Shown here: piece by piece, positions 37,696 to 63,823 of the stretch
Position numbering within the stretch: position 1 is the stretch's first letter
Layout: each line of letters starts with the position of its first letter
NCBI RefSeq assembly: GCF_009834535.1
Contig: NC_045696.1
Coordinates: 89,034,001-89,098,000, forward strand
DNA length: 64,000 bases
Direction of reading: 5' to 3'
Source of the DNA: Camelus ferus
Lineage: Eukaryota
The notes under the pieces: model-generated
The model's database searches: none
Told to the model about the DNA's origin: nothing
What the model saw: the letters and a program-made list of their open reading frames with translations, nothing else
Translations under genes and position numbers: made by a program

Positions 37696-40600
37696 GTAAA
37701 TCTCTTTACCTCTGAAGAGGTGAGAAAAGGATTTGGAAGTTGTGGCCATTACTTGATCCACGTTCCCTGCTTTGAGGGTGTGTGCAGCGTGGAGAATCAG
37801 TTACTTTCCTTCTCCCTGGCAGCAGTGGGACTCTGGACGTAGCTTTTGGGATGCGAAGGCAGCCTTGGGTTTGGAGGCAGTAAAGGGACAACAAGGAGGA
37901 GACAAGACCTGGATTGGTGAATGATCGTGTAGTGAATAGCAAAATAATAATTTCGAGTTATTGGTGTTAGGTCAGTAGTGTCACTAGTGAAAGGAGGTTT
38001 CAGGCTTTTAAAATCATTTGGCTGAAAGACTCCGTAATGGAAGCTATGTCATCTGGTTATGGGAAAATTATCAATCAGCAAATATTTCTTAAGTAGCTTT
38101 GTATACATTGCACTGTGTCAGGCATAATCAAGACTATTCAGCAAGTATTCCTGTTCTCAGAGAATTTAGTTTTGTTTGTAGGTTTTTAACTAGGAGTTTG
38201 TGGATCTGCTGGTAGGTGATTAGACTTCAGAGACGTTCATACCATCTCTTCACTAACCCTCTGCCCCCGGAATTGTATGAAAAATTCTGTGTGCCTGGGA
38301 ATTTTTCTGGGGAGTTAGTTTTCCTAGAACTTTGATCAGATTCTTAAACGTGGTCCTGACCCCCACAGTGTTAGCCACTGGTTGATTTGACTAACCCAAT
38401 AAGCATTTATTCAGCGACTCTTAAGTACTTGACATTGAGAATGGGGAGCCTCTTTCCCTCTTTTAATTTTTGCATTTTTAGGGCCTGGCATAATAAAACG
38501 CTAATCTGCTTTTTGAACGAACTTACATTACCATTCTAAATAAGTAAGTATGATTTGTGCCCTGAGGAGCATATTCAAGTTCCATGATTCTCAAAAACAG
38601 GTGTGGTGGACACTCCCTCCAAGTGTAAGAATTTGCTGAGGTTGAGAGACTGATGTGGTTTGAGTGAACATTGACTCGATATTACAATATACCTATATAT
38701 TTGAAAAAAATTATTGTTTTTGTAAGATAAACTACAGACAATAAAGCTCAATGAAAAAATTGGCCGGTATGTGTACCAAGAAAATGTAGCAATTCTCTTT
38801 GACAGCATCTGGAATCTTTTGGATTTTCGAAGTCTGTAAAACACTACTAAATCTGAGTTGAAAAGATATTAACGATGAAAAAAAGCAAAGACTAGACCAA
38901 ATTGAGTGGTGTATGTGGAGGACAGAGCACGATTTAGTAGAAAGATATAGCAGATAACAGAATCCCAAATCCTATCATTTTTTAGCCACATGCTTGGACT
39001 ATTTACTCAAGTGATCAATCTCTGAGAGTGTTTATTATAAAACCAGTATATAATACCTACCACATAAGATTGTTTATGATTGTTTGTCTAGCACACACAC
39101 TACAAGCATTTGATATTGCTGTGTTTATGACATTGACCTTATTAGGGTATATGCTGAGGATGACTAATGGGATGTCAAATTTGGAAGAAGGTTAGCTTAT
39201 CAAGAGTCTTGAAAGCTATATAAAGGATGATAGATATGATACGTTTTCAAAATATTAGAAAAATTTTGAGCTAAGGAATGACTTGGTAAACAAACAAAAA
39301 TCCAGTAGTTTTGTAGGATGTGTTAAAAGGGAAGAGATTAATCAGACATGGCTTTGATTATTATTGTACAGTCCTTCATGTGGAAGGTGACAAGTGCCTA
39401 TGCAGTAGAATGGAAAAAATCTGGACACGTTTGGGGTGGAGATCTACAGCTTTTGCAGATTTTAATGGCTAAAAGTCTAAGCCCTTAAAGTCAGTCAGCT
39501 TCTATTCTTTATGAATCCTTGGATTAGTGATGAGGGGATAGGAAGAAAATAAGTCACAAATAAATCCTAGCTTTACTGCCTTTGATGATTGCTGTAAATA
39601 ATGATAGGTCATAATGACTGATGAGAAAGAAATGTAATTTCAATAAATCAATAAAGTGACTGATAGCTTTAGATTTAGCTGAACCTAAACATGCTCCACA
39701 CAGGACAAATATTTTTTCAAATGAGCTTAAACCAGGTTGTATAATGTATAAAAGACATCCATAACAAACTGCTGCAGAGGAGACTTAAATCCAGAGTGAA
39801 AGTAGGGCACTCAGAATAAGTGGAGAAGTGATTTGAGAAAAGATTAGGGTCATAAGAGATAAAGACTTGATTGATCCCTGCCAATACTTTGGATAAAAAG
39901 AAGCTGGTCCAATTGGGATGGACTAGGTTACAATCATCTTGGAAAGTATAACCAAGTCTCATCTTTCTGGTCCAAAATCATCTACTAACAACCATTATTT
40001 TTATTTTCAGGCAGTCTGAGAAGAGAACCCTCACTTTTTATATTTTAAAAAACTGTACCCCACAGGAAGAAATAATAAGTTCAAAGAGAGAAATTGGAAA
40101 TAGAATTAAAATGCCATGTTTGCACTTCTTGAAGTGCATAGTTAAATTTTGTCATCATTATAATATGTTTTTTGTCTGCCTTCTAATGTGGTTACAGAAT
40201 TTCATTAAGTCTGAAATTAATTTGTAGGTAAATGTTTAAAAATATTAATCAAGTTTGTAATTTTAAATATTTGGATTAGTTAGATATTAATAAATCAAGA
40301 TGAATAAATACATATGCCTTTGTATAAGTAATGTATAAATACTTAGAGAATATTGTTCAAGATGAATAAATTAGATGTAGACACAGGACAGATAGTTTTG
40401 AATATTTTTCTTGATAATATAAGCCCCCTAGTACACCAATCTTGTTGAAATTCTCATCTACCTTAACAGAAAAAAAGGGAAGTGAGGAAGTAGAACAATT
40501 TTGGGAGATTGACTGTTTTGAAAAATGAGTTTGTTTTTATTCATATAGTTTGAGATTAGGAAAGATATATACAGTGGGTAGCAGAGGTAGAGAATATTGT

Positions 40601-43150: not shown

Positions 43151-44227
43151 TAAGTCTAATTCTTAATTCTTAATCCTATTTTCTTGGTTCTAATTCTGTT
43201 TCACATTGTAAACATGTATCTGCAACATGAGAGTGAAATTATGATGAATATTTAAATTTCTAGTTTTTGATAGTATTCTATCAAGTTCTGAAATAAACAG
43301 GCTTGTATAGTTTGTATATGTATCTTAGTGTACATTTACATGTATATAACAAATTCCTATGACTAGGAATTCTTCCCAGGGTAGATTCTTTATATAACAC
43401 CTCCTTTGAGTCAGTAGCTTCTAAATCAGAATATGCACAGATGTGTCAGATTGGCAGAGCCTAGGTAATTTGCCTGTGTCCTAGCTCTAAGGAGGGCTAG
43501 AGAGGAAATAATTTGTTTTTTATTTATAAGGTAGGAAATTCCCCCAAAGTAGAAAAGGTAGTTAGAAGTGTTGGGGTGGGGGTAGGGGGAAAAGAATAAA
43601 TGACCATTAGCACCAGTTTTCCTGCCCTTTAGTAATGTATGCGGGTATCTGTTTCTCTGTATGCCAGGATTGGGTTCTGGGTATTTTGCATTTGGCCACT
43701 CTGACAACAAAAAAATGGTATCTAGCTGTTTTATGTTTCATTTCTTTAATTATAATTGAGGCTGTGCATTACTTCATGCTTTTGATTGCCCACTGACCAT
43801 CTGTATTTATGCTTGTGTGAATGGTCAATCTATGTGTTTAAAAATAGAACGACCCCTTTATCAGTGCCCTTGATCAAATGACTTCATAGGGGCCCATGCT
43901 GGCTTACATTAGCTTCTGTTTCTGTAGTATTGCCAATCTATTCCTTTTCACTGGTTCCTTCTCCTTTGCCACCAAACATATTGAGGTCTACCCTAGTTTA
44001 AAAGGCATTCATAATTACTATTCTACTTCTTGCTCTAACCTCTACACTGATAATACCTTTATATATAAACTTATATACCTTTATCTTCTTCACTTATGAG
44101 CTCTGCCTGATGACTACAGTTTTTCACCATTTATTCATTGGACAAATATTTACTGAACACCTACTGTATGCAAGGATGTTTCTAGTTGCAGGGGATATAG
44201 GAGCAAACAAAACAGACAGAAATTCTG

Positions 44228-45822
44228 AGGTCTCCAGTATGGTACTTGCCAGCACAATGTCCTCGTGGTGGAGCAAGCTCCCAAAGATGGCTGCTGCCAA
44301 TATCTGTGTACTCAGGGGGAGTTCCCGTTGCCTTCTGCCTCTCTGGGAGACTCTCCAAGATCAGAAGGATACCACAGTCTTCATTGTAACCTCATGGTGG
44401 TATCCCAGGATAGAACTGTGCAATCACAGTTTTCTGCTGAGGGCCACTTGGATGGTCAGGCCTTCCTGTGCTGTGACTGTGAGACAGGCAGGGCAGAGCC
44501 CTGGGGGCTATGGGCAGAAGTAGTCCTAGGAGCAGAGACATGGGACACACAGTCCAAGGACTTGACGAAGAATGGGAAGGGCCTCAGAAAATTTCAGGTA
44601 GAAATCACGGCCCTGCAGGAGGAGAAAGGAGGCTTGCATTCTCCCCAGAAGATTCAGGGCTGTGAGATCCAAGAAGACAACCATGCCAGGGGCTTCAGTT
44701 GTTTCTAATATTTTCCTCTCCTATCACCCAAAGACCTATGGATGGGAAATGCCCTGGTCTTTGACTTGGACCTGGACTATGGAAATAGAGAAGTCCCAGG
44801 ACATAGATGGCTTTAAAAGGAAGGATTACTGGGTCTGTGTGCAGGGAGAGCTTTGTGGAAGACTGCAGAAATATCTGGAATCCTAAATGGGCTTCACAGA
44901 GAGAATAGTGCCCCCAGCAGTGAACATGGCCAGCAGCATGGCCTTGGAGGGCATGGTCACCCTGACAGCTTCTCTCCTCAGAGTATCTCACTGGCCTGGA
45001 TTCAGGATGAGAAACTCCTAAGCAGGGTGTCCAGAAATCTGGGGGTGTCCTGCCTGTTGGGAATGGGACCTACAAGACCTGAGTGGCCTTAAGGGTTCCC
45101 CAAGGTTCATGTGCTATGTGGAACACAGTGAAAATCCGAGTGCACACCCTGTGCCCTCTGGAAAGACTCTGGTGCAACAGAGTTAATGGCTGATCATTTT
45201 GGATGTTCCTGCTGTGGTTTCTTGTCATAATCATTATGCTTTGTGTCCTTTGGTACAAGAAGAAAAAGACAACATGGGCTGTGGAGAGCCCAAAGCCTGT
45301 TGGCCTACAAGACCCTGGTCAACTCCAGACACTCCAACAGATCATAATGGCCTCACACAACTGGGTTTTTGGTCTCTGTTGTCAGACCCTGGGTCCATTG
45401 ATTCAACTGAGGGAGCATAAAATCTGCAGCCATGAGGTCTGAACTCAACTCTCTACTCTGGTCTTGAATAGTATTTTCCCTCATGATGCTTCAGTTTCCT
45501 CATCTATGAAATGGGAAAAATAATATTTGCTTCCACTTATAGTTGGGATGATTAAAATGGTAATATATATGAAGTGCTTGCAGCTGTACCACACTAGTTA
45601 TTAACATTATTTTTGTTATTTTATATTATAATATATTACATGGATGATAATTAGGATTAATAATCAATAAGCTTTATCTGTAAGTGTCCTTGTAGCCACT
45701 TCTGAGGAGTCTAATAGAGTTTTGGTTCTCTTCACCCCCATCACACTTATATATGCATGATTTCATGTCCACAGTATCTGCATAATTCCATATAATAAGT
45801 TTTAAATGCTCTTTAAAGAAAA
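44228..45822 (+). pseudogene. Processed pseudogene of an MHC class I chain-related (MICA/MICB-like) gene; coding remnant 44368-45420
   Basis: Contiguous alpha1 (YHSLHCNLMVVSQDRTVQSQFSAEGHLDGQAFL), alpha2 (GLHSPQKIQGCEIQEDN; GELCGRLQKYLES), alpha3 (VPPAVN; ISLAWIQDE; CYVEHS), TM and tail (TQLGFWSLLSDPGSIDSTEGA*) with no introns; stops at 44706 and 44884 plus frameshifts; A-tract ~45815-45826; TSD-like flanks. Confidence 0.92.
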
Positions 45823-46149
45823 AAAATGGATAAAAATCTGTACTCATGGAGCTTACATTTTAGAAAGGGGCAGTAGTAAGTAAAATACTATGACAGATGG
45901 CCTTGAATAGGATACACCGGCAAGGCTTTACTGAGAGGGTGACTTTTGCGCAAAAAGATGAAGGAAGGAAGAAAGGAGTAAGCCATACAGCTATCTGGGG
46001 TCACGGATTCCAGGCAGAGAGCATGGGTACAAAGGCTCTGAGGCAAGAGCATGATTAGTATGTAAGAAGGAAAAAAAGAGGCTAGTGTGGCTGAAGCAGT
46101 GAGTGAAAAAAAGAGAGGCAACAGGAGATGAGGTCAGAGGAATGATGGG

Positions 46150-49400: not shown

Positions 49401-51742
49401 ATCTGACTTAGCCTTAGAAGCATTACTGGCTGCTATATTTAGAAGAATTTGAAGGGGTATGTGTAAGAGCAGAAAGATCGGTTCTGGGGTCACTGTAATA
49501 ATTGAGACAGAGAATGATGGTGGCTTAGAACTATGATGCGGGTGCTGAGGAGTGGCCAGATTTGGAATATATTTTGGTAGCTTGGTAATCAGGATTTCCT
49601 GGGCACATTTTTTCCTCTTAAGCCTCATAAATGTTGACCTACACTGGACCAAAGATAGTTCAAAGATAATTTATAAATGATTTTTAGTAGCAAAGGCATA
49701 GTTCCTCCTGTCTGCTCTCTAATTATCCACCCCCCCCAACCCCATTTACCACTGGCTAGTCAGATCCTTGATGACCAATGCCTTTGGGCAGATAAAAATG
49801 CCTCAATGTAGTGCTCAGGCAGCTCTGCAATTCCCCTAAATGGCTGTGCTCTAATACTACTTTCCCCTTGTTCCTTTATTCAGTCTCATATCAGAATGCA
49901 CATATCATTCATGCAGATGATCTCAGCTAAATAGGGTGTATGGGGAAGATCTTTCTGAGCAAGGGAGAATCATTCCAGTGCTAGGATGCCACTCTCTTTC
50001 TCTGATCCTTTACACCATGTTTCTGAATAGTTGATTCCTTTCTCATAAAAACCATACTGCCTTTACTTATTTATATAGTATTAAGATTTCTTTTGGTAAG
50101 GAATTATTCCTAATTATGGATTTCTGCAGTTTGAAGTGTTGTTGGTTGGAACAGAGAAAGCTTTATTGCAATGCTAAGCAAGGAGAACAGGTGTGTGGCT
50201 CGTGCTCAAATATCTCGAATTCCAGATGTGTTTTGAAATAGGCTACATTATGACTTTGCCAAAGATCTTCAAAGTTTCTGGTTGTAATTTTATATATATT
50301 TTCTTGTCTATTGTGTTGTTTCTCATTTTCAGAATGAACAATTTATCTGTCTATTCTTTTGAAATCCTTATAAGCTGAATTGCTACTTGAATTATTGTGA
50401 AAAAGTAGCATTTTGTAAATATTTTTACCTTTCCCCTCCTCTAATTGAAGGAGGTCTGATGGAAGGGAGAACAAGTTATGAAAAAGGTGCTGAAATTCCT
50501 AGGAATTAAAAGTGAGCCTTGGAAATAGCCTGGGAGAGATTATCTTCTTGCTCTGCCTGCTATACACTGATTCATACTTTTGAATTTGAACATAAATCTC
50601 CTTAAGTCATCTGGAGAAGAGAGAAGGTTTTTGACCCTAATCGCATATTAACTAGACAGAAACTTTTTTCCTGTAGTCTTAACAATTTCCCCCCAGTCTC
50701 ACAAATTTAGGAGTAGAATAAGTGAAAAAGGTGTTTTGAAATACAGCTGTGTTTAGCACCTTGCTAATCTAAAAGTCTTCCTAGATTCGGAGGAATGAGA
50801 AATTATCGAAGGTAGGCCCACTGAGTTCTTATCTACACTCAGTACCTCCTTTGATGTAGTTAACAGTAATTTTCTACCTGGTGAAAAGCATTTTTTTCCT
50901 TTAACCACACTTTCATTTAATTTTTTTTTTCTTTTTAGTTAGTGATGTTTCTCAGAAAGAATCCAAAACTGTAAATTGGATTGCGATAATTTAGCATTTC
51001 CTTAATTTGTGTATTTTGATAGCATGGTTATTGCGGGAGTGTTACTCTTCTTCCCAGTTTTTATTTGGCAATTACATTGTGATTTTTATATAACTTTTAT
51101 AATGGATTTATTACCTCTTTCTTAAATAACGCACTTATTTTTCACATTGCCACTGTGGAAACCATAATTGTTGGGCAGTGTATCTACCCCAAACAGAATG
51201 TAAATCTCAGATTGGATCACTAGATTGATGATGTCATAATATTGCTATGTGGGTTCTATAATTAAGGCCTGCAAAAATGTATCGTAGCCCTTCATCAGAC
51301 CTTCAGAATTATTTTAATGTATATCCATTCAACAGCACCAACACTGATCTGCCATTGAAGGGTACCTATTTTAAAGAATCTTCTGATTTGTCCTCAGGAT
51401 GGCCTTTGAAATTACTTACCTGACCAGATTCAGTGGTGTTCTGCACTTGCAGGAATATTTTAGGCAGGTTGTGAGGACCTCTGGAATCCAACTCAAGGTC
51501 TCCAATCATCTGTTGGCAGAATTAGCACACTCTGAGTAGTTTTCTTCCTCTTTGCATATGCTTGCTGTTAGGAAGATTGAAGGTGCTTCAGTGTCTTTGC
51601 GGTGCTAAGATGTTTTGTTTGCTTTTATTTTTTTTGTGTTCATGTTTTGTTTTTAATGCAGATTCTATATTTCCCTCCCAACTTTTATTTTACAGTGAAT
51701 ACAATCAAGTGGCATCTAAAAATTTTGCTGAAAAGTGGAGAC

Positions 51743-63823
<12,081 letters not shown>

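Follow-up and report, generated by a model that had tools for sequence, protein, structure and literature searches.

Processed pseudogenes that L1 elements produce in trans are marked by exact intron loss, a 3′ A remnant, a target-site duplication and decay (PMC4772013, PMC5860796), and processed pseudogenes have been noted as records of old transcriptomes (PMC9641868). A second system, the antisense promoter of the L1 5′UTR, is known from living RNA in primates and mouse (PMC4908685) and from reporters in pig (PMC6501411). The transcription starts antisense within the first ~600 nt of the 5′UTR (PMC4908685, PMC6501411). The human chimeric transcripts are spliced into a downstream host exon, typically omit the host first exon and carry a YY1-like motif at the start, while YY1 binds the human L1 5′UTR at 13-21 as well as close to where antisense transcription begins, and the 5′UTR antisense activity of old human L1s is described as only minor (PMC4908685). 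The L1.3 primer given in PMC5860796 puts the same YY1-like motif at position 13. The same paper describes SpIREs, in which a splice event in the L1 5′UTR is fixed in the genome by retrotransposition. The MIC genes finally (MICA/MICB; camel MICA, PMC6829570) encode alpha1, alpha2, alpha3, a transmembrane segment and a tail, in this order.

The camel locus described here has the same MIC domain order, but it is without leader and introns, lies outside the MHC and is disabled, and it retains one alpha1 codon, as well as a cytoplasmic tail, both of which are absent from camelid MIC. It shares all the marks of an L1-made processed pseudogene; however, its first exon is antisense L1 5′UTR and not an exon of the parent, and the parent locus no longer contains the source L1. 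The known chimeras are living RNAs or reporter constructs from primates, mouse and young pig families (PMC4908685, PMC6501411), whereas the camel copy is a record in DNA that stems from an old L1 family with a different 5′UTR, a putative start at ~+620, a donor at ~+480 and a predicted promoter activity. SpIREs are sense-strand L1 RNAs spliced within L1 (PMC5860796), whereas in the camel copy it is the antisense strand that was joined to a host gene by splicing.

The locus was found in a 64,000-nt stretch of the Camelus ferus genome (NC_045696.1, positions 89,034,001 to 89,098,000 of the forward strand), called the window in the following. With regard to its MIC part and its target-site duplication, the dead, intron-less MIC copy at 44228-45822 in an IFT80 intron is an ordinary processed pseudogene, which we consider virtually certain (Table 1). 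The living MIC gene of the camel is MHC-linked, and the region from 44368 to 45817 corresponds to its exons 2-6 and 3′UTR after removal of the four introns in between. The internal exon junctions are exact in 4/4 cases when compared with this intron-containing gene (G000:C20:20548854-20552472), and a comparison of its introns 1-5 with the insert returned as sole match 28 bp (E 0.005). Identity to exons 2, 3, 4, 5 and 6 amounts to 75, 77, 80, 78 and 77%, respectively, with K2P distances of 0.24-0.31 and of 0.28 for the 3′UTR, and for exons 2-4 a dS of 0.35 and a dN of 0.25 were determined (dN/dS 0.71). In the alpha1 frame the best PDB match is MICB (E 3e-34), ahead of class I (8e-11), HFE (3e-8) and MILL2 (2e-7). 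Compared with classical class I, MILL, MR1 and HFE, it is MIC to which the retrocopy is most similar, and it nests among MIC proteins in trees, its protein identity to camel, rhinoceros and whale MIC being 59-64%. Three stops (44884, 45080 and 45184) and four frameshifting deletions of 11, 13, 1 and 13 bp separate it from the living gene. The original prediction, made from the letters of the window, had proposed an intron-less MIC retrocopy with in-frame stops and frameshifts, and the exon-by-exon alignment reproduced its domain ends at 44631, 44908 and 45160 as well as the terminal STEGA* at 45420. Its warning that the copy could cross-map in MIC typing appears less apt; with 75-80% identity and the indels, cross-mapping would be unlikely. 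Having no leader and carrying stops and frameshifts, the retrocopy is not a functional surface NKG2D ligand; as a gene it is dead and without evident immunological effect. Its 3′UTR contains a small old repeat (window 45470-45620), presumably a MIR, and the same repeat is found in the 3′UTR of the parent.

Table 1. Features of the MIC retrocopy and its insertion site (window coordinates).
Feature	Position	Strand	Evidence
Older dispersed repeat, left part of insertion site	44130..44227	+	17 non-self matches at 74-92%; contiguous with right part in 5/11 copies
Target-site duplication, 5′ copy	44209..44227	+	14/18 identical plus one gap versus 45823-45840
First exon of retroposed RNA, antisense L1 5′UTR, ~L1 +620 to +480	44228..44367	+	38 repeat matches at 78-84%
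First YY1-like motif position, decayed (predicted start-site element), 8 nt after 5′ end	44236..44242	+	exact AARATGG in 19/36 L1 copies; labelled by likeness to PMC4908685
Second YY1-like motif, intact in retrocopy	44284..44290	+	exact in 20/36 copies
Splice junction, L1 antisense donor to MIC exon 2 acceptor	44367..44368	+	GT next in 25/36 copies; exon 2 after cccccag in C20 gene
MIC exon 2 (alpha1), open frame	44368..44631	+	75% to C20 exon 2; PDB MICB E 3e-34; Pfam MHC_I E 4e-10
MIC exon 3 (alpha2), 11-bp deletion, stop 44884	44632..44908	+	
MIC exon 4 (alpha3), deletions of 13, 1 and 13 bp, stop 45080	44909..45160	+	
MIC exon 5 (transmembrane), stop 45184, longer than camel exon	45161..45293	+	
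MIC exon 6, cytoplasmic tail to STEGA* (stop 45418-45420) and 3′UTR	45294..45817	+	77% to C20:20551971-20552472; tail like whale, pig, horse
Poly(A) tail remnant	45818..45822	+	parent similarity stops at 45817; parent then non-A
Target-site duplication, 3′ copy	45823..45840	+	versus 44209-44227
Host repeat resumes	45841..45913	+	

The host gene is IFT80 (E 2e-11) on the plus strand, head to head with SMC4 on the minus strand, the two sharing a CpG island at ~35-38 kb of the window. From the sequence, the donor of IFT80 exon 1 is predicted near 37696, and exon 2, which contains the start codon, is predicted at 51696; by these two marks the retrocopy likely lies in intron 1, in IFT80 sense orientation. 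At 51696-51790 exon 2 is followed by ATATCCTTT, which resembles an AT-AC donor of the minor spliceosome. The stretch is present in 20 of the 24 listed sequencing runs (two organisms); three are recorded as RNA, with shares of 0.54-0.78, which is no evidence of expression, since IFT80 pre-mRNA or DNA would explain them. The decayed duplication of 18-19 bp flanks the whole unit, L1 piece and MIC alike. In 5 of the 11 host repeat copies tested, out of 17 non-self matches to the left flank, the right flank follows directly after the left with one copy of the duplicated bases, more than in all 100 shuffles. Hence, the likely location in IFT80 intron 1 and the decayed flanks of ~18 bp were correctly foreseen, and so was the split of an older repeat that resumes behind the insert; this repeat is presumably an L2, and a Pfam search with two candidate ORFs of the repeat gave no match. 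The A-tract expected at ~45815-45826 is indeed a poly(A) remnant, but a short one, with ~5 bases between the end of parent similarity at 45817 and the 3′ duplication. Internal priming at a genomic A-run was considered and rejected, as there is no A-rich sequence in the parent where the similarity ends.

The original prediction read the whole of 44228..45822 as MIC and missed that the first 140 bp (44228-44367) are antisense L1 5′UTR. The 38 dispersed matches to this piece come from 40 of 449 candidates that were scored. Extended to 10 kb, the copies run into L1 ORF1/ORF2 on the opposite strand, and five of seven ORFs picked from 10 extended copies of the first 16 match Transposase_22, Tnp_22_dsRBD, Exo_endo_phos_2 or RVT_1. 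On the L1 scale the 5′ end of the retrocopy falls at ~+620 (range +564 to +642) and the junction with MIC at ~+480 (13/15 copies measurable). A comparison of the retrocopy 5′ end with the MIC leader exon showed no match beyond chance; together with the L1 5′UTR matches, this rules out the piece as the MIC leader exon. The ATGs in the L1-derived exon are out of frame with MIC, so that the leaderless RNA would give no normal surface MIC. The predicted L1-mediated retroposition of an ancestral MIC mRNA is therefore supported as to the retroposition, but the mRNA was chimeric, with antisense L1 5′UTR in place of the MIC leader as its first exon.

As read from the aligned bases, 44367/44368 is a base-exact record of an L1-antisense-to-MIC splice. 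Among the 36 of the 38 L1 copies that were surveyed, GT stands at the junction base in 25, mostly as CAG or CAA followed by GTGGGT or GTGAGT; 35 continue in L1 past the donor and one ends there. Scored against the donor consensus, this GT is the best fit (7.45 of 9; next 6.78) among 34 GT columns conserved over 640 nt, i.e. with GT in at least 8 of 15 copies. The MIC side of the junction is the first base of exon 2, right after the acceptor of the C20 gene. Two features of an L1 antisense-promoter transcript are present, a first exon of antisense L1 5′UTR and an L1 donor spliced to a host exon.

Two predicted RefSeq models from Camelus (P0089 and P0090) start with the peptide of one of the L1 copies (L016) and exit L1 at the same donor. 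In the present genome (G000), P0089 leads from AAG/GTAGGT at C6:27810250 to TAG/TTCAGA at C6:27812568, with the AG 2.3 kb downstream; as predicted models, the two would show use of the donor, not a promoter. In the region of L016 and L059 (G000:C6:27810170-27827958), the camel gene models LOC123619697 and LOC106730858 connect this L1 antisense donor with several exons farther downstream. A total of 166 proteins carry the L1 antisense peptide, of which 115 simply continue into L1, as gene calling from DNA would lead one to expect, 24 scored as other tails and 27 are too short or ended early. None of the 166 has a MIC tail, and only P0089 and P0090 could be placed on a genome. Eleven unnamed proteins (P0086-P0088, P0093, P0095-P0097, P0102, P0108, P0114 and P0264) switch at the donor position from the L1 antisense peptide to one common non-L1 sequence, and perhaps represent, in another mammal, a chimeric element present in many copies or a family of such transcripts. 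Their common sequence (P0093 family) is absent from this genome, has no Pfam match and was not seen in the metagenome scan. The one copy that ends at the donor base (L020; G000:C2:73979848-73979983, minus strand) is an antisense L1 5′UTR fragment followed by unique sequence and then another repeat. It was rejected as a second spliced retrocopy; the 90 bases past the donor have no other match before a common repeat begins, and a source exon was not found, so that an end at this base may also come about in some other way.

We consider it likely that a MIC intron that has since been deleted contained an L1 antisense promoter, that this promoter gave rise to a spliced transcript without the leader, and that the transcript was retroposed on the cetartiodactyl stem. 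Under this promoter reading, the retrocopy would be a full-length or nearly full-length processed pseudogene of the chimeric RNA. In 15 copies, examined on the antisense strand from -400 to +640, the exact motif AARATGG occurs only at +9 and +58 from the retrocopy 5′ end. The sense 5′ ends of the same L1s, judged by eye, show AARATGG after ~10 purine-rich bases. By analogy, this suggests that the retrocopy 5′ end lies within 1-3 bases of the start expected from such a YY1-motif module, in a comparison that is post hoc and uses L1 copies chosen by their likeness to the 140-bp piece; in the retrocopy itself the motif at +9 has decayed, which speaks against the promoter reading. The motif spacing would support a start inside L1, while nearby AGs leave room for exonisation, in which the normal MIC promoter produced an RNA running from the leader exon through a cryptic antisense L1 exon to exon 2, and reverse transcription stopped in the L1 exon so that the leader was lost. 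AGs are conserved at -25, -9, -4 and -2 from the retrocopy 5′ end and would bound an exon of ordinary size; the TAG at -4, present in 11/15 copies, would allow an internal exon of about 145 nt. L1s are described as holding cryptic splice sites that are retained as exons, cases which were filtered out in PMC4908685. The pyrimidine tracts at the upstream AGs are weak (0.45-0.56), which speaks against their use, with the limit that two real MIC acceptors have similarly weak tracts (0.47 and 0.53). A 5′ truncation, although common in retroposition, would have to stop within a span of between a few and 25 bases which, in addition, fits the motif spacing of the L1 sense start, and no leader remnant is left at the 5′ end. 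Taken together, exonisation appears unlikely.

With respect to age, the retroposition probably predates the camelids and falls on the cetartiodactyl stem, before the split of camel, pig, cattle and whale, and not in the camel lineage, as had first been supposed. Between two anchor residues of alpha1, 47/48 cetartiodactyl MIC proteins have 10 residues (one is misaligned and none has 11), whereas the 29/29 other proteins and the retrocopy have 11; counted were named proteins covering the interval, leaving aside unnamed proteins and redundant camel isoforms. The tail is ancestral as well, reading to STEGA* as in pig, whale and horse. At 16 diagnostic columns the retrocopy shows 6 cetartiodactyl, 6 outgroup and 4 other states, and of the 15 columns that set camelids apart from most others, 3 show the camelid state in the retrocopy and 6 the common one. 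In trees the retrocopy is placed outside the cetartiodactyl MIC clade with supports of 97/96 (23 of 36 rows, after removal of partial and redundant ones) and 97/94 (22 rows of alpha1-2), and its link to the cetartiodactyls has a support of 67/59 in one tree and 85/96 in the other. A position as sister group of camel MIC was rejected by the AU test (p 0.032), in which the retrocopy forms a long branch. The distances are 0.28 for the 3′UTR, 0.26 for the duplication and 0.23 from the L1 piece to its family, compared to 0.26 among the copies. At a rate of about 2.2e-9 per year, 0.28 corresponds to roughly 65 million years, which falls between the dates of the horse split and of the cetartiodactyl crown.

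These trees date the parent lineage and not the insertion, and the promoter reading would hold equally, at a different time, if an old MIC paralogue had survived to the camelid stem and been retroposed much later, with the insertion camelid-specific. A second MIC paralogue did exist in the C20 locus, and the clock of the duplication is weak (4/18 differences, 95% range 0.06-0.48). Its distance nevertheless equals that of the 3′UTR (0.26 and 0.28), the undeleted alpha1 state occurs in 0/48 cetartiodactyl proteins, and no such paralogue is left in the sample, so that we regard a late insertion as improbable. A metagenome scan for orthologous MIC copies gave nothing relevant.

The only MIC-like locus found in the 2.09-Gb genome, at C20:20545112-20552472, comprises exons 2-6 and, separated from them by an intron 1 of 3.67 kb, a leader exon; no further MIC copies were seen in the genome beyond C20, apart from one weak match (E 0.002). 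It is located in the MHC (C20:20.55 Mb) beside class I genes and POU5F1/TCF19, as the translations of the neighbouring genes suggest. Its protein is identical to a Camelus MIC record (P0011) over 243/243 aligned residues. The camelid protein records P0011 and P0004 omit the first 32 alpha3 residues by use of an internal acceptor, while exon 4 in the genome is open from the usual start. The living gene stops right after the transmembrane segment (G000:C20:20550663-20550773, L025:663-773), and the Camelus and Vicugna records end likewise. Camelid MIC, going by these sequences, is without the cytoplasmic tail that pig, ruminants, whales and horse keep.

Near the living gene, 70 kb (C20:20510001-20580000) were searched for a source L1 5′UTR and contained none, with only ORF2-end fragments in intron 1; the source L1 was presumably lost from the parent locus by deletion. 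An inverted duplicate of the MIC upstream region lies on the minus strand at C20:20556587-20561754 (L025, L026). It holds a leader exon without ATG, an orphan at C20:20556809-20556878 (minus strand), and the start of intron 1, but none of exons 2-6. One block of 886 bp is 92% identical to the upstream DNA of the living gene, and the rest 64-81%. A second MIC paralogue, deleted from intron 1 onward, would be the natural candidate for the parent.

The following history is proposed. In a MIC gene of the cetartiodactyl stem, an L1 of an old family would have come to lie upstream of exon 2, in reverse orientation, the likeliest parent being the second paralogue of which the promoter, the leader exon and the start of intron 1 appear to remain. 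In the germline or early embryo, the antisense promoter of its 5′UTR may have started transcription ~600-640 nt inside L1, ~10 nt before the YY1-like motif. The donor at ~L1 +480 was then joined to the acceptor of MIC exon 2, followed by exons 3-6, giving the leaderless mRNA that the order of the sequence records. As the anatomy of the insertion indicates, this RNA was copied into the older repeat in IFT80 intron 1 with a duplication of 18-19 bp. The enzyme for this copying is L1 ORF2p. The retrocopy subsequently decayed, as its lesions attest, with no L1 5′UTR left within 70 kb around living MIC. That the L1 piece was joined without splicing, by template switching in reverse transcription or as a separate L1 fragment beside a MIC cDNA truncated at exon 2, is very unlikely, even though L020 ends at the same base without an identifiable downstream exon and no such L1 lies near present-day MIC, because it would need two base-exact coincidences (one at the acceptor of exon 2, one at the donor that scores best among the 34), a single duplication flanks the whole unit, and the same donor is used in an independent, predicted gene model (P0089/P0090).

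In the open literature searched, no report was found of this copy or of any retrocopy of an L1 antisense-promoter transcript; subscription papers lay outside this scope, and supplementary retrocopy tables could list the locus. Ordinary as a retrocopy, the locus stands out by its record of the L1-antisense-to-MIC splice and, probably, of an antisense start site. Going further, and only tentatively, with the odds somewhat against it, the old laurasiatherian L1 family may have had an antisense promoter of its own in the 5′UTR, built like the sense promoter with a purine-rich start and a YY1-like motif ~10 nt on, and a fixed donor 140 nt later. The retrocopy would then record both ends of such a transcript, older than the radiation of the cetartiodactyls and made at an NKG2D-ligand gene that afterwards lost everything from intron 1 on, and the module might still feed chimeric transcripts in the camel, for which the models LOC123619697 and LOC106730858 offer a living test case. 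Antisense promoters in older L1 5′UTRs are hard to see because the copies have decayed; the retrocopy gives a predicted start and a donor that can be tested in thousands of copies of the family across hoofed mammals. If such an old-family antisense promoter existed, retrocopies could map extinct L1 antisense promoters to the base. For the MIC family, the retrocopy dates ancestral states, as the alpha1 codon deletion and the loss of the camelid tail would have come later. Its presence or absence is also a candidate marker for the cetartiodactyl stem.
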